A stretch of DNA of 64,000 bases from Fistulifera solaris (GCA_030295235.1 AP026123.1:310001-374000), one strand, 5' to 3'. Positions 19,008-55,870 are shown, counted from the stretch's first letter. Translations and numbers: made by a program. The notes: generated by a model from the letters alone, not told the origin.

Positions 19008-22000
19008 ATGGACGAACCTTTCATTGCAATGTGTTTATTCATCATTCATCATCAAACAGTTCGTTGGTACAAAATATTACGATGTACCATGAGAACATCA
19101 CTCAAGATGCCGCTTTGACAGGAACAATCCATTTTGTTTGCGAATTACGAAGGCCGGGAAAGAAGAGAAAGCATACCGAAACGCGCGGCCCTCAGATTGT
19201 CGGCTGGAGTTTTCGATGTCACCATGGAGTCGAGTATCTGCTGTCTTTTCCCATTCGCTGCTATCACAATGCTTTACGTGCATGGCAGCAAAGCCTTGTG
19301 GTTCACTTGGAGAAATTTACCTTAGTCCCCATATCGACGACGACCAGATTCGACCATCTCATCGAAGTGCACGAGGACGGGCTCATCGTACCTGCAATCC
19401 GAAACCAAGCCAGAGACGCGCGTCTTGACAAAGATAACGCCTGGACTCTGGCCCAGATATCACTCAAAGAAGCTTTGGATATTCATCTGCAACGACAAGT
19501 ACAGAATTACCGCTCATACAAAGACTCGCAGTCACGGAAATACTCGTTTCGAGCAACCATTCAAGCTGTTACGCCCATCTTTACTTTGGACCCCTCCGAT
19601 CCGTTTTGTTTGCTTCCAAGTCGAAGATGAAGGATATCGATCTGTATTAGTGCTTCAAAAAGAGGCCCTGGCGTGCAGTACATTGTTGATTCCGGGGGAT
19701 ACCTGTTACTTTTGCGACGTCACTCGAATCGCATGGAAAGTTCCTGACGAACTGAATCAAGAGCGCTTTGCCCATTTGCAAGCAAACGTCCCAACGCATG
19801 TTTTTGTCGCTCACAACAGAGACCAAATTGCTATCTTGAATAGTCCTCAGCGGTCTGAAGTGTCTCCATCGCTCACTGGTTGTATCACACGCGTTCACAG
19901 CGTGCATTCACAAAACTCGTACCCGGGCAGCGTTTCGATTCAATACATCGACTTGATTACCGAAGACGGGACCGACTGCAGGCTCTATCTCGAATATTTC
20001 CCCATGTCCTCCACCTTGCAACTAAGCTTACGAAGTGGAATTACTATCATGGCCACCAACATACATGAGCTAGGGCAAGGGCATTTTGCAGCGTGCTCAC
20101 GATCGAGCATTCATGTTCAAAGCATGCGACCTGATCTACCTTTTGGAACTCATCTGAACTTGCGGTCGATCGTTTTACTCCCTTGACTTACACGCGAATA
20201 CGGAAAACGTGCTATGACACAGCTTTGTCCACTCTGTTGTCTGAATTTCTCGATGGGTTCGACCGTATCGACGCTCCCAGTGTCCGGCATTGGGCGCGTA
20301 GCTGGCTACAACATCATGGAGTTATCAGCAGTAGTGCCACCCCACCTCCCTCGACGAAATGTGTATGCAGAATTCTTTGATCATCAGGATGAGGCGGTGG
20401 ATGTAGACGACGACGGTGCCGAACGATCCGGATGCCATTTGAGCCGGGACCTGCAAAGGGCACCCAAATTGCCCTTCCTAATACAACTGAACGATATTCG
20501 AAACGAAGCGATTCGTGTCCTTCAAGATAGGTTAGATCGTTACATTGCAAATAATCGTGTTCGGGTAGGATGGAGTGCTTCGTTCACGTTGGGTGCCGAG
20601 GATCTAAACGTCAACCTGAATCCCAGAAAGTGTTTGAATGCAGCAATTTATTCGGGTGGTGCTGTCGTGTCTGCTTCAGGACCTGTGCATACAAATGATG
20701 CAAGCATGTTGTTGTTAAGTATCAGCAATGGAAACACCGTTCTACCCATTGTTGTAGAGAGCAATGCTGATGTTTCGCCCCACACACATGCACTCTTTGG
20801 TTTGGAGAGTATCACTACGTCCGTCCTCTGCCTGGGTGCGAGTCCTAGAGGAGATAACGACGTACGGAGCGAAGGAGGGGCAGATGTCTGTATTCTTCCT
20901 GTGTTTGGTGGAGATAGTCGTTTCCATGGGCCGTGTGTTTTGATACGAGTGACAAATCAGAATTGGATATTCATTGCCAGTTTTCATATAGAAGCAAAGA
21001 CTCTCCTTAAGATATCTACTGACGAATCACCGATCGAAAGGGAAGCTGCCGAGACTCGACCGTGCCGCGCACCGGTACATTTGGGCGATGTAGCATTACC
21101 AACTTTCGACACGTCTCCTAATACAAGCGACCGGATGTGTGTCAGCTTGCTTGCGAGGAAACAGTTCGCTTTCATGCGATTGAAGAAGGGGAGCTACGGA
21201 GGCATCACACTTACTCTTGCACATATGCCTTTACGAAAAGCATCTATGGACGAAGTGAACGATCTTTCGGATCCACGCGGTGTGACTCTGCAATCCATTG
21301 ATTGTAGGCCTTTTCTTCTGTTGGACGAAGTTGCCACAAGGCAAATGGAAGCTTTCTTTTCTTGCTCGTCCATAGCAGCAACTGGTGTGCTGAGTGAGCA
21401 AATAGCCACAGCTCTAGCTTTTTGGAAAATCGCAAGCTCTGAAACACAATGCTTTCTGTTACATGGCGGTTTGGACGAATTGAGGTCCGGTGCAAGTACG
21501 TTTTGCCACAGTCGGAACATCACTGTCCTTGTGCCGCTAAACAATTTTCAACGCGATCCGAAACGAGGATATTTACGGATACGCTCCAATTTCAACGACA
21601 TTGTCGCTTTCCCCGTCGGTTCAGCGAAAAGATTTGCAAGGTCTGTCGATGAGAATGGTTTGTTCGAATACATCGGAGGCGGGAAGATGATTGCTGGTAT
21701 GTTGGGACGCCATCGTAATCGAAATCAGTATGGAGATATAGCGATTGGTGAGCTCACTTCCACGATATGGAGTCAAAGAGACGACGGGGTTCCTACTTGC
21801 TCGATTGGGGAAATGTTCCGAAGCCTTTGTCTTGACTTACAAAGCGGGACATGTACTCATTTAGCACCCTCTTTGACGCGTCGAGTGGTCGGCACTTTCT
21901 TGGGGGTTTCCTTCTGTCGGGCGATTGCTGAGTGTTCCGAATGCTATTCGCAGTTAGTAAAGAGCAAACACAAAGCCAAACAAAAGGCGGTGACCAGGAA

Positions 22001-22728
22001 GAACGTACGCTCCAGCACGAAGGTCAGTTTTGGAACCGTGCACTCCCTCCGAGTACGGATTCTATTAGTGAGACCAACAGCGAGATTCAGAGCACCGACA
22101 CGATTAGTATGAGCGATAAGGTTGAGCGTCCTGAGCCACCGACAAGGTCGATGATCTCAAGAATTTGATGATTTGCCCGAAACGTTGTGGTGGTCAAATA
22201 GCGATCAAATGGGAATGCAGCGGCACCCTGGATGATTCGACGGGCCAGGCAAAATTGTACGCCGAGCGAGACGCTGCCCTGTTATTACTAGGATTGACCA
22301 AACAGTATGTGTCCATGATAGAAGAAGGTGCATGGATGGAACCAAATGGTATAGTCTTTTCCAAAGCAATGGCACCGAATCCGTCGATCACGCATGCTAT
22401 TTCTCGCGCCAAGTATCGCGCCAAAGAGTCGCGTCGGGGCGGTAAAATTAGCGAAAACGTTGTCTTGCAGCACATGGAGCCGTTGGCTCGCGCCGAGTAT
22501 CTCTTGCAGCGCCATTGCCGATTCTCACCGGAACCAAGTCGCGATTTGATTTATTATGTTCTTTGCAAACCCATGGGTGACAATAATCTCCATCTCAAGC
22601 ACACAAACGTCGATCAAGTGTCGGATCAATCGGTTCCCACGTACACACTGCCGCCTTTGAAACTCGTTCTCGTCGACGGTCAAGCGGTCTCGTCAAGGGG
22701 GAGGCACTACGACAATGATGAGCAGTAA
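19008..22728 (+). CDS. large multi-OB-fold protein, CTC1-like (CST complex)
   Basis: Chain of same-strand overlapping ORFs totalling ~1200 aa. RLYLEYFP...LRSGITIMATNIH resembles a CTC1 OB motif. The C-terminal OB fold has Zn ligands (CSEC...CPKRC) and SGTLDDSTGQAKLYAERDAALLLLGL. The start is uncertain (ATG 19008 with an indel, or ATG 19082). Confidence 0.55.
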
Positions 22729-22799
22729 ACTGTTTTACTAGAGTATATTATTGGGTCTCATCTTTTTCACAGTGATTGTTTTAGTCCTAAAGCCTCATA

Positions 22800-23343
22800 T
22801 TAACGCGAAACTGTCTTCTTGAATGCATCATAAGCACGAAACTTGACTTTGTCTTTGGCAGGAACGTGAACGGGCTAGGGTGCGCTACGTTTGAGAACAA
22901 CCACATGCTGATCATCGTCAAGACTGTGAAGCAACTACTTACCTCCCCCGTCTTGGGGTTCCGAGCGGTGTATTCTTTGGAGCGAGAAGGAACAAATGCT
23001 CCAAATTTACTAATCGAGACTTCTTTCTTTTCTGCGACCGCCTGTCACAAATGAACTGAGATTGCATTCTGTAGATTACTTCACCCTAGAGCGACCGTCT
23101 GTGTTCCAAACTTACATCAACAATGGCATCAAAGGTAGTTGTTAAGATTCGTCTTGTTTCCGCCAGTGACAAGTGGTGTGCTTCCGCTACTAAGTGAACA
23201 ATGTCTTCCGTAGAAACACGATCTTTCGAGGCTTTGCTCGCCTTCGACGACTCGGATTCGGAACTGGAAAACGATACCTGTGCCGTCGCGATAGATCCGC
23301 GGATCTTGTGTGCGGGAAGAATACGACGAGTAATTCGAAGCAT
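22800..23343 (-). CDS. bacterial-type histone-like HU/IHF DNA-binding protein, 3 exons, mitochondrial-like presequence
   Basis: Exons 23343-23116, 23041-22943 and 22874-22800 (GT-AG) give ...STEDIVHLVAEAHHLSLAETRRILTTTFDAIVD|AVAEKKEVSISKFGAFVPSRSKEYTARNPKTGE|PVHVPAKDKVKFRAYDAFKKTVSR*, with the canonical HU FG.F and RNP.TGE motifs. Confidence 0.93.
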
Positions 23344-23690
23344 GTTGATTAGAGAAAATGCAAATGAAAACGAAAAAGAAACGATATGTTTTACAAGAAA
23401 CAGTGCATTACAAGTATTGCGAAAAAAATGCAGCCGAGCCCGTTTTCAATCTAAGCGTTCAACCGCGATTCAACTAAGTATACCTCTTTAGAGTGCAACG
23501 GTCAGCTGTATCAAACAATTTAGTGGTCTCTTTCGTTGAACAAAGAGGACCCGGAAAATGAAAACGTATTCCTTTTTCATTTTTTTGAAAACTGGTCTTG
23601 TCGTTTCTCACATCGAAAACAATCCCTTTTCAAGAGCACGACTTGATCCATTGCTTTCGCCTTAAGTATGTGATCATAAATTGGAAAAGC

Positions 23691-25540
23691 ATGTCGATGA
23701 AAGGCACTTTCGCGTTCTTGCTTGGTCTTCCGGCCGCCACCGCCACACTCGTGTCCCTCCCCGAACACGGTCGAAGCCATCACTTGGGTCCTGTCGTTCA
23801 TCCCACTCCCAAGTGCTGGAATGCCGCCACGCAACTATTCCCCGAACTATCACCATCGATCGATACCGTCCAATTCTGTGCGTTACTGCCCGAACACGAC
23901 CAAAAACGATTGGCTTTGGAAATTGCACGTTGTCACATGCTCGATCTCGGCAAACCCCTCGTCCACGGCCCGTGCCATCACCTCGAAGACTGTTTGCGGG
24001 ATTTGACCAGCGAAGGCGCGCATGCGTATACGCATTACATTACGTACGTGCAGCAATTGTGCATTCGATTAACGCAAGAATTGCTGTTGCAACAACAACA
24101 CCAAACTCAGGTCGATATTGGGGAGCAATATAAGAGTGTGTCACAAGAAACACTGGCGCAGGTTCAGAATCTGCAACAGTCCATGGGACAGCACGTCCGT
24201 AATTTGAATGAATTAGTGGATCTTCCCCAACGCTTGCGCGAGAAACTCAGTCGGGAACTCGAAGAGAAATTGACCGAAACCTTGACGCTGTCACTGGATC
24301 GAGAATTGAACAAGCATTTGGCGACGCAGTTGGAAACGCAGCTCGGATTACAACTCGGGCACTTGTTGGAGCAGCAAGCACTGCATCAAGCCAACTTTGT
24401 GGCGGGCATTTTGGACAATTTGACGGTCCGCGATCAAGAACTGCAAGAGCGTTTCAAGTTGTGGGAACACTATCAAACTTCCTTGTGGAGCAATCATGCC
24501 ATGGAAGTTGAGAAGCAGCGCCGACAAATTGAAGAGCAACGCAATCGGATGGATTATCTGAGCAGTACATTGAATCATGCGACGCGTTTGTTGTGGCCGA
24601 TTGAGGGATTGAAAGCGGTTGCGCAATGGATCCTAAGTGGCTATGTCTGGTTCGAAACGGTTGTTACCGTTTTAGTCCACGTTGTGGTGACGGTGATTGT
24701 GACACGCCCTCGTCGTTGTCATTTGTTTCGAACGCATTTATTCCAGCTGATATTCTTGGAAGTTTTATTGGAAGTGATGATACACTGGATGGGGCAGAAT
24801 GAAGTCGTGGGGAATGAAACAATCAATGCCGACAAATTTCTTGGCTCTCTTCGCATGGGCTTTCGAGTTACAATGATTCTGATCTATGTGATTGGAATGA
24901 CGGCCAGCTTTTTCGTAAATCAAGCCACCAAGAAGTCTCGCAACGAACGTCTGAATATGAAATGCATCGTGCGGAATGGGAAATGTCAAGGAACAATCCG
25001 GTCGACTATTATTATCCGTCTCCTCCACCCATACCTCCGCCTGTTCCTTTCACGGTTCGAGAACGTCAGTTACCGAACAAGATACCTCGACATTTGAGCG
25101 CACGTCTTGAAACGATGCATGTTCCCCGATCCGATGCTGCAATCAGACGATACCGAAATGTTGTTGTGTCTCCATCGTATCCGTCTCCCATGGCGCCGTC
25201 TACGACCAAGACTATATTCCGTAGACTTGCTACTCCGCCTGAGAAAAGAGAAGAAAGAGTTTCATCCGTTGCATGGCGCGAAGAGATCACCCCACCGCCG
25301 GCGGCTCCTTTGTTCAATCCTACTACAGAAGAAGAAGAAGAAGAAGAAGAAGAAACGGAAGAGGAGACCTTTTTCGACGCCCCCGATCCCGAGTATACCA
25401 GTGATCGAAAGCGCAAGGAAGAGTTATTTGTGGAAGGAGAAGAAGAAGAAAATTTGCACAAGAACAAGAAGAGCAAAAAGGAATGGATGCTCGAATGCGA
25501 CGACGATGCGACTAACAATAACAACGGAGAGCAAACGTGA
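23691..25540 (+). CDS. GEX1: GEX1/KAR5/Brambleberry-family nuclear fusion protein
   Basis: Signal peptide, then a Cys-rich domain (CWNAA...FCALL...KRLALEIARCH...CLRDL...AYTHY...QLC), a long coiled coil and three TM helices. An acidic/basic tail follows the frameshift near 24950. Confidence 0.8.
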
Positions 25541-51674: not shown

Positions 51675-54600
51675 CCGAATTCTGGAATCAGTGTCTAACG
51701 ACATAAGCTTAACAGAGATTCTGTATGGATTTTAAAAATTGTTTGCGGTCAAACAAAGACTCCTCCTCTGTTGTCGTTCCAGAAATTCTGGAATCGGATC
51801 AAACAGAGATTCTGTGTTCGATCAAGAAATTCTGGTCTAGTTGTTTTGAGTAATACAGAAATTCTGTATTAGTTCCAGAAATTCTGGAATCGGCAATTTG
51901 GGTCATACGAAAGAATGTGGTCGTTCCAGAAATTCTCAAATCGGTAATGTGGATAAAACAGAGATTCTGTGGTCGTTCCAGAAATTCTGGACTAGTTGTT
52001 GTGGGTCAAACATAGATTCTTTGGTCGTTCCAGAAATTCTGGACTAGTTGTTGTGGGTCAAACATAGATTCTTTGGTCGTTCCAGAAATTCTGGAATCAG
52101 TGTTTTTGGTCAAACAGAGATTCTGTAGTCTTTCCAGAAATTCTGGAATAATCGGTAATTTGGATCAAACAGACATTCTGTGGTCGTTCCAGAAATTCTG
52201 GACTAGTTGTTTTGAGTAGTACAGAAACTCTGTGGTCGCTCCAGAAATTCTGGAATCGGTAATTGAGTCATACGAAAGTCTGTGGTCGTTCCAGAAATTC
52301 TGGAATAGGTAATTTGCATAAAACAGAGATTCTGTGGCCGTTCCAGAAATTCTTGACTAGTTGTTTTGGTCAAAAGAGATTCTGTGGTCGTTCCAGAATT
52401 TCTGGAATCGGTGCTTTGGGTCAAACAGAGATTCTGTAGTTGTTCCAGAAATTTTGGAATAATCGGTAATTTGGATCAAACAGAGATTCTGTGGTCATTC
52501 CAGAAATTCTGGACTAGTTGGTTTGAGTAATACAGAGATTCTGTGGTCGTTCCAGAAATTCTGGAATCGGTGCTTTGGGTCAAACAGAGATTCTGTAGTC
52601 GTTCCAGAAATTCTGGAATCATTCCAGAAATTCTGGACTAGTTGTTTTGAGTAATACAGAGATTCTGTGGTCGTTCCAGAAATTCTGGAATCAGTAATTT
52701 GGGTCATACGAAAGTCCTTGGAGGTTCCAGAAATTCAGGATCGTTGTTTTTGGTCAAACATGGATTCTGTGCCCGTTCCGGAAGTTCGGGAATCGGTGAT
52801 TTGGCTCAAACAGAATTTCTTTGGTCGTTCCAGACAGTCTGGAAATTGTGTTTTGTAACGATCAGAGATCCGGTGGTCGTTCCAGAAATTCTAGAATCGG
52901 TAATTAATTTGGATCAAACAGAGCTGTGGTCGTTCCAGAAATTCTGGACTAGTTGTTTTGAGTAATACAGAGATTCTGTGGTCATTCCAGAAATTCTGGA
53001 ATCGGTAATTTGGGTCATACGAAAGTCTGTGGAGGTTCCAGAAATTCAGGAATCGCTGTTTTGGGTCAAATATAGATTCTGTGCCCGTTCCGGAAGTTCA
53101 GGAATCGGTGATTTGGATCAAACAGAATTTCTTTGGTCGTTCCAGACAGTCTGGAAATTGTGTTTAGGGACGATCAGAGATTCGGTGGTTCCAGAAATTC
53201 TAGAATAGGTAATTTGGATCATACGAAAGTTTGTGGTCGTTCCAGAAATTGTGGAATCGGTAAATGGGTTAAACATTGATTCTGTGGTCGTTCCAGAAAT
53301 TCTGGAATTGGTAACTTGTATCAAACATAATTTGTTTGGTCGTCCCAGAAATTCTGGTAAGTGTGTTTAGGAACAAACAGAGATTCATTGGTCGTTCCAG
53401 AATTTCAGGAATGTTGTTTTGGGGGCAAACAGAGATTCTGTGACTGTTCCAGAAATCAGGAATTGTTGTATTCCGTCGTACAAAAGTTTGTGGTGCGCCG
53501 GGATTCTGGAATCGGTAACTTGGATCAAACAGAATTTTTTTGGTCGTCCCAGAAATTCTGGAAAGTGTCTTTTGGAACAAACAGAGGTTCAGTGGTCGTT
53601 CCAGAAATTCTGGGATCGGTGATTTGGAACAAACAGAAATTCTTTTGTCATTCCAGAAATTCTGGAAAGTGTGTTTTGGATCAAACAGACAATTCTCTCG
53701 TTCCAGAAATTCGGGAAATGTTGTATTGGGTCCAAAAGAAATTCTGTAGTCGTTCCAGAAGTTCTGGAATCGGTAATTTGAGTGAAACAGAGATTCTGTG
53801 GTCGTTTCAGAAATAATAGAATCTATATATTTTTGACCAAACAGAGATGCGGTGGTTGTTTCAGAAATTCTGGAATGGGTGTTTTGAGGTCGAGCAGAGA
53901 TTCTATGCCCGTTCCAGAAATTCCGGAAAGTGTGTTTTGGAACAAACAGAGATTCATTGGTCGTTCAAGAAATTCTGGGATTGAAGCTTCGAGTCAAACA
54001 GCGATTCTGTGGTCGTTCCAGAAATTCAGGAATAATTGTTTCGGGTCAAATAGAGATTTCTGTGCCCGTTCCAGATATTCGGGAACTATTGTATTGGGTC
54101 AAACAGAGTTTCTGTCGTCGTTCTAGAATTTCTGAAATCTGTATTTTGGGACAAACAGAGGTTTTGTGGTCGTCCCAGAAATTCTGGATTCGGTAATTTG
54201 GGTCAAACAGAGATTCTGTAGTCGTTCCAGATATCCGGAATCAGTTTTTGGATCGTACATAGATTCTGTGCCCGTTCCAGAAATTCTGGAATGGTTGTAT
54301 TGGGTCATACGAAAGTCTGTGGTCGTTTCAAAAATTCTGGAATCTGTGGTCGTTCCAGAAAATCTGGAACTGTGCTCGTTCCAGAAATTCTGCACTAGTT
54401 GTTTTGGGTCAAACATAGATTCTGTGGTAGTTCCAGAAATTCTGGAATCGGTGATTTGTATCAAACAGAAAGATTCTGTAGTCGTTCCAGATATTCTGGA
54501 ATCGTCGTTTGGATCGTACATAGATCCTGTGCCCGTTCCAGAAACTAATTTGGAACAAACATAGATACTCTGTGGTCGTTCCCGAAATTCTGGAATCGGT

Positions 54601-55870
54601 GATATGGATGAAACAGAGATTCTGTAGTCGTTCCAAATATTCTGGAATCAGTTTTTTGGATTATACATAGATTCTGCGCCAGTTACAGATATTCTGGAAT
54701 GGCTGTATTGGATCATAGGAAAGTCTGTGTCCGTTTCAGAAAATTTGGAATATCTTTTGGCACAAACCGAGATTCGGTGGTCGTTCCAGAAATTCCGGAA
54801 TGGATAATTTTTGGTCGCATAGACACTCTGTGGTCTTTCCAGAAATTCCGGAATTTTATAATTTGGGTCAAATAGAGATTCTGTTGTCGTTCTAAAAATT
54901 CTGGATTCGGTGATTTGGACAAAACAGAATACTTTTGTCTTTCCAGAAATTCTGGAAAGTGTGTTTTAGATCTAACAGACATTCTGCCCGTTCCAGAAAT
55001 TCGGGAATTGTTGTATTGGGTCAAACAGAGATTCTGTAGTCGTTTTAGAAATAATAGAATCTATATTTTGGGACAAACAGAGATGCGGTGGTTGTTCCAG
55101 AAGTTCTGGAATGGGTGTTTTTGGGTCGAGCAGAGATTCTATGCCCGTTCCAGAAATTCCGGAAAGTTTTTGGAACAAACAGAGATTCAGTGGTCGTTCA
55201 AGAAATTCTGGGATTGAAGCTTGAGTCGAACAGCGATTCTGTGGTCGTTCCAGAAATTCAGGAATAATTGTTTTGGGTCAAACAGAGATTCTGTGCCCGT
55301 TCCAGATATTCGGGAACTGTTGTATTGGGTCAAACAGAGATTCTGTCATCGTTCTAGAATTTCTGGAATCTGTATTTTGGTTTTGTGGTCGTCCCAGAAA
55401 TTCTGGAATCGGTAATTTGGGTCAAACAGAGATTCTGTAGTCGTTCCAAATATCTGGAATCACTTTTTTGGATTGTATATAGATTCTGTGCTCGTTCCAG
55501 AAATTCTGGAATGGTTGTATTGGGTTCCAGATATTGTGGAATCGTTGTTTTGCGACATACAGAGATTCTTTGGTCGTTCCAGATATTCTGGAATCGCTGA
55601 TTTGTATCAAACATAGACTAGATTCTGTGCACGTTCCAGAAATTCTGGAATCTATATTTTGGCACAAACAGAGATTCGGTGGTCGTTCCAGAAATTCTGG
55701 AAATGGTTATTTGGGTCGAATAGAGACTCTGTGGTTGTTCCGAAAATTCTGAAATGGGTGTTTTGGGTCAAACAGAGATTCTGTAGTCGTTCCAGATATC
55801 TGGAATCAGTTGTTTGGATCATACATAAATTCTGTGCCCGTTCCAGAAATTCTGGAATGGTTGTATTGTT
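51675..55870. repeat. ~53-bp palindromic satellite array (roughly 75-80 monomers) with higher-order repeats
   Basis: Consensus CAAACAGAGATTCTGTGGTCGTTCCAGAAATTCTGGAATCGGTAATTTGGGT repeats continuously. The monomer count is estimated from array length divided by period. Confidence 0.97.

Follow-up and report, generated by a model that had tools for sequence, protein, structure and literature searches.

The window, i.e. the whole stretch of 64,000 nucleotides of DNA analysed here, carries on its minus strand an intron-containing gene for a protein of the bacterial HU type. The locus raises the questions of whether this is a working gene of a eukaryotic nucleus and, if so, to which compartment of the cell its product is sent. 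The gene is best explained as a functional one, located in the nucleus of a raphid pennate diatom and specifying the precursor of a bacterial-type HU; the source of the DNA is best explained as a diatom very close to Fistulifera solaris, or as a homeologous copy within F. solaris. As for the destination, import into mitochondria is the best reading of the N-terminal leader and, as far as sequence features can indicate, a moderately probable one.

The gene extends over positions 23343..22800 of the minus strand, from an ATG at 23343-23341 to a TAA at 22802-22800. Its parts, along with the region separating it from a divergently oriented neighbor, are the following:

23116..23343, minus strand: exon 1 (228 nt, 76 codons), containing the ATG, a 42-aa N-terminal extension and the first two HU helices
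23218..23343, minus strand: codons 1-42, putative mitochondrial presequence and Ser/Lys-rich linker
23042..23115, minus strand: intron 1 (74 nt, GTAAGT...ACAG, GT-AG, phase 0)
22943..23041, minus strand: exon 2 (99 nt, 33 codons), containing the first beta strands and the ascending DNA-binding arm with its R-N-P-K-T-G-E tip
22875..22942, minus strand: intron 2 (68 nt, GTAAGT...CTAG, GT-AG, phase 0)
22800..22874, minus strand: exon 3 (24 codons, 22874..22803, and the TAA), containing the descending arm, the last strand and the C-terminal helix
23344..23690, no strand: intergenic region of 347 bp, bounded by the start codons of the HU gene and of its divergent neighbor, presumed to contain a shared promoter and the 5' UTRs

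Joining of the exons yields a coding sequence of 402 nt and a product of 133 aa. When the gene is left unspliced, the frame meets a stop 9 codons into intron 1, whose donor GTAAGT directly follows the last codon of exon 1; intron 2 in turn shifts the frame, because its 68 nt are not a multiple of 3. Exon 2 alone matches PF00216 over profile positions 35-67 (31 bits, E 3e-7, for a cut-off of 22.4), and exon 3 alone over positions 68-89, with 15.2 bits and an E of 0.026, below the same cut-off. Since the first match ends at position 67 and the second starts at 68, the two exons follow each other in the profile with no position missing. Exon 1, compared alone to Pfam, does not match PF00216. The spliced product was also scored against a HMM of the HU core, 91 positions long and built from 44 bacterial-length hits, and obtained 109.6 bits over positions 2-90. 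The combination of a three-exon structure and a complete HU domain is, by sequence comparison, far beyond chance. The earlier note had described a spliced gene at 22800..23343, whose three exons yield a complete HU fold. Its coordinates proved exact, with two phase-0 GT-AG introns and junctions identical to those of the closest database relative, and the fold is confirmed by the matches to PF00216 and to the core HMM and by the structural model of that relative, described below.

This relative, indicated here as P0005, is the protein FisN_5Lh147 of F. solaris, named 'DNA-binding protein HU-beta' in UniRef and known from database annotation alone. It agrees with the window product in start, both exon junctions and stop, and is identical to it at 119 of 133 residues. 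Eight of the 14 differences, including a one-residue indel, fall within residues 1-42 and the other six within residues 43-133, the identity of the HU core being 93%; the leader is therefore less constrained than the domain, and yet it is kept.

Further orthologues were identified for exon 1, namely P0004 (from JGI), P0006 (from Logan), P0055 and P0067 (both from the representative library), with identities between 57 and 89%; for P0005 and P0004, exon 1 identity is 86-89%. The sequences P0004, P0006, P0055 and P0067 do not stop where exon 1 does but read on as '...D-V-S', the translation of GTAAGT, before diverging completely. They are evidently prokaryote-style ORF calls, and a read-through followed by divergence is the pattern expected when the position of an intron is conserved while its sequence is unconstrained. 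Three members of other subgroups (P0212, P0218 and P0220) display a '...V-(R/S)' read-through at the position of intron 1, again followed by divergence, so that this intron may predate the split of the paralogues. Metagenome scans performed with P0005 and with P0004 found no orthologous locus. As a separate observation, contigs from X1 span both introns unspliced and without joints; X1 behaves as DNA.

The complete HU domain corresponds to residues 44-132 of the window protein. In the Pfam scan, the structural modelling and the Foldseek search, P0005 was used as a stand-in for the spliced window product. It matches both PF00216 and PF18291, the former with 84.2 bits over profile positions 4-89 of 90. 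Its AlphaFold2 model, based on an alignment of 43 sequences, reaches a pLDDT of 95-98 for residues 44-131 and comprises helices at 44-55 and 59-78, strands between 83 and 122 forming the beta sheet with its arm, and a last helix at 124-131; residues 1-43 are disordered, with a pLDDT of 53-63, and no helix is predicted in the leader. Comparison of this model to the PDB by Foldseek returned 42 matches at E<=1e-3, and those listed are all HU, IHF or HU-like proteins. Against HU and IHF structures the TM scores lie between 0.8 and 0.89, and for solved HU structures, after normalisation to the target, between 0.83 and 0.89: the model superimposes on the Anabaena HU-DNA complex 1p71_A with a TM of 0.87 (rmsd 1.6 A over 90 columns) and on Staphylococcus SAV1473 with a TM of 0.89.

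The domain, the fold and the R-N-P-x-T-G tip of the arm, which carries the DNA-intercalating proline, are thus common to the window protein and to bacterial HU/IHF (PF00216). The tip, encoded by exon 2, is intact (A-R-N-P-K-T-G-E) and aligns with the G-R-N-P-K-T-G-E of the Burkholderia HU 6n2l. In contrast to its bacterial counterparts, the window gene is interrupted by spliceosomal introns and encodes a eukaryotic N-terminal extension of 42 aa, and its product also differs in two details of the domain. The last strand reads K-V-K-F-R-A-Y, nearer to the pattern of IHF-alpha, where the usual bacterial HU sequence is V-P-x-F-K-x-G-K. Upstream of the tip, one of the arm Arg residues is replaced by a Tyr, at a position where 6n2l has a DNA-binding Arg. 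This Tyr is common to all five sequences of group A (the closest group in the trees described below) which cover the region, and details of DNA binding may therefore differ from those of bacterial HU.

The destination of the protein has to be read from its leader. The 42 residues include 5 Arg, 4 Lys, 10 Ser and 3 acidic residues, with Ser and Thr accounting for 29%. The first 25 residues contain 5 K/R and no D/E, and the first acidic residue is found at position 29. Hydrophobicity, evaluated by measures which, like the charge counts, are crude, is low throughout: no hydrophobic run is longer than 2 and the 9-residue Kyte-Doolittle mean (KD9) peaks at 1.03, R, H and K interrupting the sequence. 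For comparison, the plus-strand neighbor, whose ORF starts at 23691 and translates without stops, has a signal-peptide-like N-terminus with a run of 7 and a KD9 of 2.07. The five orthologues P0005, P0004, P0006, P0055 and P0067 have the same Met start, keep their R/K residues in place and lack acidic residues up to a conserved 'F-S-S-(E/D)', after which comes a Ser-rich acidic stretch.

The leader has the composition of matrix presequences, rich in K/R and Ser/Thr and acid-free at the N-terminus, and lacks the ER signal peptide with hydrophobic core which is part of the bipartite leaders of diatom plastid proteins. Diatom plastids are bounded by four membranes, and import into them requires an ER signal peptide; on these established sorting rules, a protein devoid of it would not enter the plastid. 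Import into the mitochondrial matrix and cleavage would instead fit a leader whose basic, acid-free part precedes an acidic one. The motif for the processing peptidase includes an Arg at -2, -3 or -10, and the conserved R-x-R-G...V-S-F/S-S-S of the leader appears to fit roughly a pattern with Arg at -10 or -11. On the other side, the hydrophobic moment of the leader is moderate, with a maximum of 0.34, and this value, together with the lack of a helix in the model, would count against mitochondrial import.

The possibility that a signal peptide is encoded further upstream was also considered. An in-frame TGA is located at 23448-23446, 34 codons before the HU ATG, and no in-frame ATG is found between the two. 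Over the 347 bp upstream, minus-strand ORFs are only short and closed; the distance to the divergent ATG leaves little room for a signal-peptide exon, and the annotated F. solaris model P0005 begins at the same Met. Such an exon is, from the arrangement of the sequence, unlikely. The orthologue P0004 has an upstream extension of 37 residues with a hydrophobic stretch, which was evaluated as a possible signal peptide and rejected: the homologous frame in the window is closed by the TGA and has no ATG, and P0004 is itself a prokaryote-style ORF call running into the intron. The description of the leader given in the earlier note, as Arg/Ser-rich, acid-free and devoid of a hydrophobic signal peptide, is thereby borne out, as are the features that set it apart from a plastid leader, and the upstream signal-peptide exon, which the note held to be incompatible with its proposal, did not emerge; the mitochondrial localisation drawn from these features stays inferred.

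Leaders of this kind are not limited to the closest orthologues. A phmmer search with P0005 retrieved 4958 proteins at E<=1e-3, of which 77 reached E<=1e-10, the best matches being mostly 120-250 residues long and composed of an N-terminal extension and a single HU domain. In a profile search, 80 proteins were found at E<=1e-8 among 8000 scored candidates. The named ones come from Nitzschia inconspicua (2), Cylindrotheca closterium, F. solaris and Bacillariaceae MAGs (2 proteins), with the addition of an MMETSP1423 'Pseudo...' entry and one Deinococcus HU. No signal peptide is seen in three MMETSP transcripts which carry the flag 'complete'. The subgroups of the family are only 30-45% identical to one another, and three of the named species are members of one diatom family, so that the subgroups would represent paralogues rather than differences between species. 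On sequence similarity, the window gene is one member of a larger family of eukaryotic HUs encoded in the nucleus, which share similar leaders and include several diatom paralogue groups. ESM Atlas look-ups returned only generic bacterial HU clusters, with scores up to 0.81, to be taken as mere leads.

A census of the leaders was performed on 84 proteins, i.e. the 82 rows of the eukaryote-like clade found by FastTree (see below), the window protein and P0005. A Met start and an extension of at least 20 aa are found in 75 of them. Within the first 25 residues, 48 of the 75 extended members have no acidic residue and 60 have at most one, while at least three K/R are present in 58. A hydrophobic run of at least 8 is seen in a single member (P0053, where the run is Ala/Gly-rich), and a KD9 above 2.3 only in P0016, in a portion lying ahead of a second Met; none of the 75 has a clear bipartite leader of the diatom plastid type. 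At least two early acidic residues are found in 15 of the 75, and these count against the mitochondrial reading; several of the 15 start with 'M-F-G-F-G-S-S', which may correspond to internal Mets. Taken together, the lack of a signal-peptide core, the conserved basic leader and the similarity of leaders across the family point to a destination other than the plastid, probably the mitochondrion.

The alternative which survives best, an unlikely one nonetheless, is that the protein acts in the plastid nucleoid, or in both plastid and mitochondrion, as HUs of red algae, cryptophytes, green algae and apicomplexans act in plastids, and reaches it by means of an unrecognised or alternative N-terminus. 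A Ser/Thr/Arg-rich, acid-poor sequence is also typical of plastid transit peptides, and in diatom plastid leaders the cleavage site of the signal peptide is directly followed, at +1, by an aromatic residue ('ASAFAP'-type motif); the leader of the window protein has a Phe at position 25, conserved among the orthologues and followed by a Ser-rich stretch. No signal peptide, however, precedes Phe25, the required ER signal peptide is absent and none is encodable in frame upstream, and relatives known from complete transcripts are equally devoid of it. Targeting to the plastid, if real, would be an exception to the rule of bipartite leaders and is the less likely case. In favor of a plastid role, in the accessible text of two papers (PMC13108849, PMC5499826), the well-studied eukaryotic organellar HUs known before 2026 are all plastid proteins, and Burroughs et al. 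2017 (PMC5499826, accessible text) explicitly place those of stramenopiles, with nearly all eukaryotic HUs, in one plastid-derived clade, 'often' provided with signal peptides, the HU of Acanthamoeba being a separate late transfer. Moreover, if all paralogues of the family were mitochondrial, the protein packaging plastid DNA would be unaccounted for, and this point counts against mitochondrial import. A term search of the organelle proteome of T. pseudonana (PMC6683858), covering the text and one supplement, gave no match, and the table may omit such annotations.

The bacterial side of the comparison bears on the same alternative. P0005 scores 45.8 bits against Burkholderia HU, more than against Anabaena HU (36.8 bits) or E. 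coli HU-alpha (36 bits). Its best tblastn match among plasmids, with 40.7% identity and 69 bits, comes from Erythrobacter, an alphaproteobacterium; all plasmid and phage matches are at or below 41% identity, and no cyanobacterial record is found among those listed. These scores provide weak hints that P0005 is not specifically close to cyanobacterial HU.

Relationships within the family were analysed by two tree-building procedures. The FastTree analysis included 184 single-domain rows, after 34 of 218 proteins, 19 multi-domain and 15 partial, had been left out. In this tree the window protein and P0005 form, together with P0007, P0013 and P0029, a group (support 95) which lies outside the eukaryote-like clade of 82 rows. 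An IQ-TREE quick search, run on 95 hand-chosen rows, defined a group A composed of the window protein, P0005, P0007, P0013, P0029 and P0024, with a SH-aLRT of 95. A single clade uniting group A with the large family is not rejected by the AU test (p 0.673), and the tree constrained to contain it is 15.4 log-likelihood units better than the one obtained by the free search. The alignment, of 91 columns, is too short for the deep branches to be reliable or for a donor lineage to be named.

Four members of group A, P0007, P0013, P0029 and P0024, have no N-terminal extension, and some of them have basic, Lys-rich C-terminal tails. That the nearest relatives outside Fistulifera are extension-free counts against the mitochondrial reading and favors a second alternative, according to which the protein binds DNA or RNA in the nucleus or elsewhere outside organelles, as the HU-like proteins of dinoflagellates do, its basic N-terminus being a disordered tail. 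Dinoflagellates do employ nuclear HU-like proteins, as stated in the accessible text of PMC5499826, and disorder is predicted for the N-terminal region. In its place, its length and the arrangement of its charges, however, the extension matches a cleavable presequence rather than a Lys-rich tail: about 25 basic, acid-free residues precede an acidic Ser-rich stretch, an arrangement kept from the first Met in five orthologues, and inspection of the sequence did not reveal a classical basic NLS cluster. A nuclear or other non-organellar role is accordingly judged improbable, somewhat more so than a role in the plastid. The last alternative, that the locus is not a working gene and results from bacterial contamination, an unexpressed recent transfer or a pseudogene, is suggested by HU being a typical bacterial gene and is hardly credible for a sequence lying within a 64-kb eukaryote-like contig, broken by two spliceosomal-type GT-AG introns, the first of which shares its position with four orthologous ORF calls and apparently with P0212, P0218 and P0220, and keeping an intact frame in which the core is preserved and the leader diverges faster.

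Under the preferred reading, import into mitochondria, the extension would act as a matrix-targeting presequence: the precursor would be taken up by the mitochondrial import machinery and lose its presequence by cleavage, likely within the conserved '...V-S-F / S-S-S-E', at about residues 25-28. Once mature, the protein would measure roughly 90-105 aa, dimerise like bacterial HU and bind and bend mtDNA without sequence specificity, thereby compacting the nucleoid and assisting replication, recombination and transcription. In this capacity it would replace the HMG-box proteins TFAM and Abf2 of animals and fungi, as has been proposed for AcHupA, the HU of Acanthamoeba castellanii. TFAM and Abf2 are unrelated in fold, and the role they would share with the window protein is the non-specific bending and compaction of mtDNA. 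Bacterial HU is reportedly able to complement functionally the mitochondrial packaging protein of yeast.

Comparable proteins are the plastid and apicoplast HUs (Cyanidioschyzon HU, cryptophyte hlpA, Chlamydomonas HLP, Plasmodium and Toxoplasma HU), which are likewise HU-fold nucleoid proteins of eukaryotic organelles and some of which are nuclear-encoded with N-terminal targeting extensions; they act in plastids, and those of secondary plastids bear signal peptides, according to the accessible text of PMC5499826, whereas the window protein does not. The earlier note had stated that eukaryotic HUs are best known from plastid and apicoplast nucleoids. Reviews agree with this view, and the available part of one published in 2026 gives HU-like proteins for plastids and apicoplasts only and calls the mitochondrial nucleoid proteins of Toxoplasma unknown (PMC13108849); since 2026, however, a mitochondrial case has been on record. 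AcHupA binds DNA in gel-shift assays, co-localises with mtDNA and is proposed by its authors as a TFAM-like packaging replacement, as reported in the accessible text of PMC13632651, and the idea of a mitochondrial HU is therefore not unprecedented.

AcHupA and the window protein are both nuclear-encoded HUs of bacterial type, the mitochondrial site of the latter being read from its sequence. AcHupA is, according to its authors, a recent horizontal transfer confined to Acanthamoeba (PMC13632651, accessible text). Residue R66 of AcHupA (equivalent to E. coli R58), reported there as mutated, probably corresponds in alignment to the arm Tyr of the window protein. An organelle-targeted eukaryotic HU, possibly mitochondrial, is thus a known kind of protein, and the protein of the sister species is already present in databases. 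A full-text search, with most subscription journals outside its scope, found no paper on diatom HU or on mitochondrial HU in stramenopiles, and the prediction of mitochondrial HUs in diatoms appears to be unpublished in the literature searched.

The packaging of mtDNA is largely unknown outside animals, fungi and a few protists, and the window gene provides a small, easily tagged diatom candidate. If the protein is mitochondrial, HU-based packaging of mtDNA would no longer be confined to a single amoeba but would include a major group of algae, the plastid role assumed for stramenopile HUs would come into question, and one could ask whether mitochondria had HU ancestrally or gained it repeatedly. 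A much broader proposal can also be formulated: the mtDNA of diatoms, and probably of other algae in which the family occurs, would be packaged by old, intron-bearing, multi-paralogue nuclear HUs, possibly passed down vertically since the alphaproteobacterial ancestor of mitochondria; the ancestral packager would be HU, replaced later by HMG-box proteins in animals and fungi, and the plastid view of stramenopile HUs would be wrong for this family. Taken in its entirety, this proposal is speculative and doubtful.

Among bacteria, a scan with a single protein as query gave one partial match, in a MAG of Candidatus Glassbacteria. A family search, which found no loci in the named control genomes, identified in this MAG four ordinary HU genes.

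A short motif, 'F-W-(S/G)-(S/T)', is common to seven database relatives of the HU protein (P0008, P0010, P0012, P0015, P0022, P0078 and P0220), which together make up a subgroup within the eukaryotic HU family. The motif is found where the basic leader ends, directly ahead of a polar linker, and may mark a conserved processing site. Outside Fistulifera, the proteins of the representative library closest to the Fistulifera-type HU are P0007, P0013, P0024 and P0029, all devoid of an N-terminal extension; in three of the four the C-terminal tail is Lys/Pro-rich or contains Cys. Nuclear, viral or truncated forms of HU may be represented by these proteins.

The HU gene is flanked on both sides by open frames:

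20187-22109 (+), long open frame of 641 codons, just downstream of the HU gene 3' end
22135-22725 (+), long open frame of 197 codons, just downstream of the HU gene 3' end
23691-25094 (+), open frame of 468 codons, divergent to the HU gene

The N-terminus encoded by the divergent frame is signal-peptide-like, and comparison with Pfam revealed no family above the cut-off, the only match being a weak one to STAT_int (17.5 bits). Since its ATG lies 347 bp from that of the HU gene, the two are probably served by a common bidirectional promoter. Neither of the two frames located beyond the HU 3' end matched Pfam at E<=0.01; they may be exons of a single diatom-specific gene.

Over positions 22600-23700 of the window, the contigs obtained from X1, the only sequencing run to cover it and one which behaves as DNA, are short and unequal in depth, being split at 22832-22865, 22933-22978 and 23582-23633, and two single-base insertions, at 22762 and 23541, are also present. 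Such a pattern is to be expected if the sample contains two similar copies of the region, either alleles or homeologues.

A repeated region was also noted elsewhere in the window:

51799-55868, about 4 kb of tandem repeats, the 52-nt unit being present in roughly 78 copies

The copies match at 64-79% and each unit contains the palindrome TTCCAGAAATTCTGGAA; a higher-order periodicity is also present, at 206 and 311 nt. The composition profile shows low GC (0.40) over the array together with a strong GC skew (+0.19 to +0.25), and a single ORF of at least 200 aa overlaps the array.
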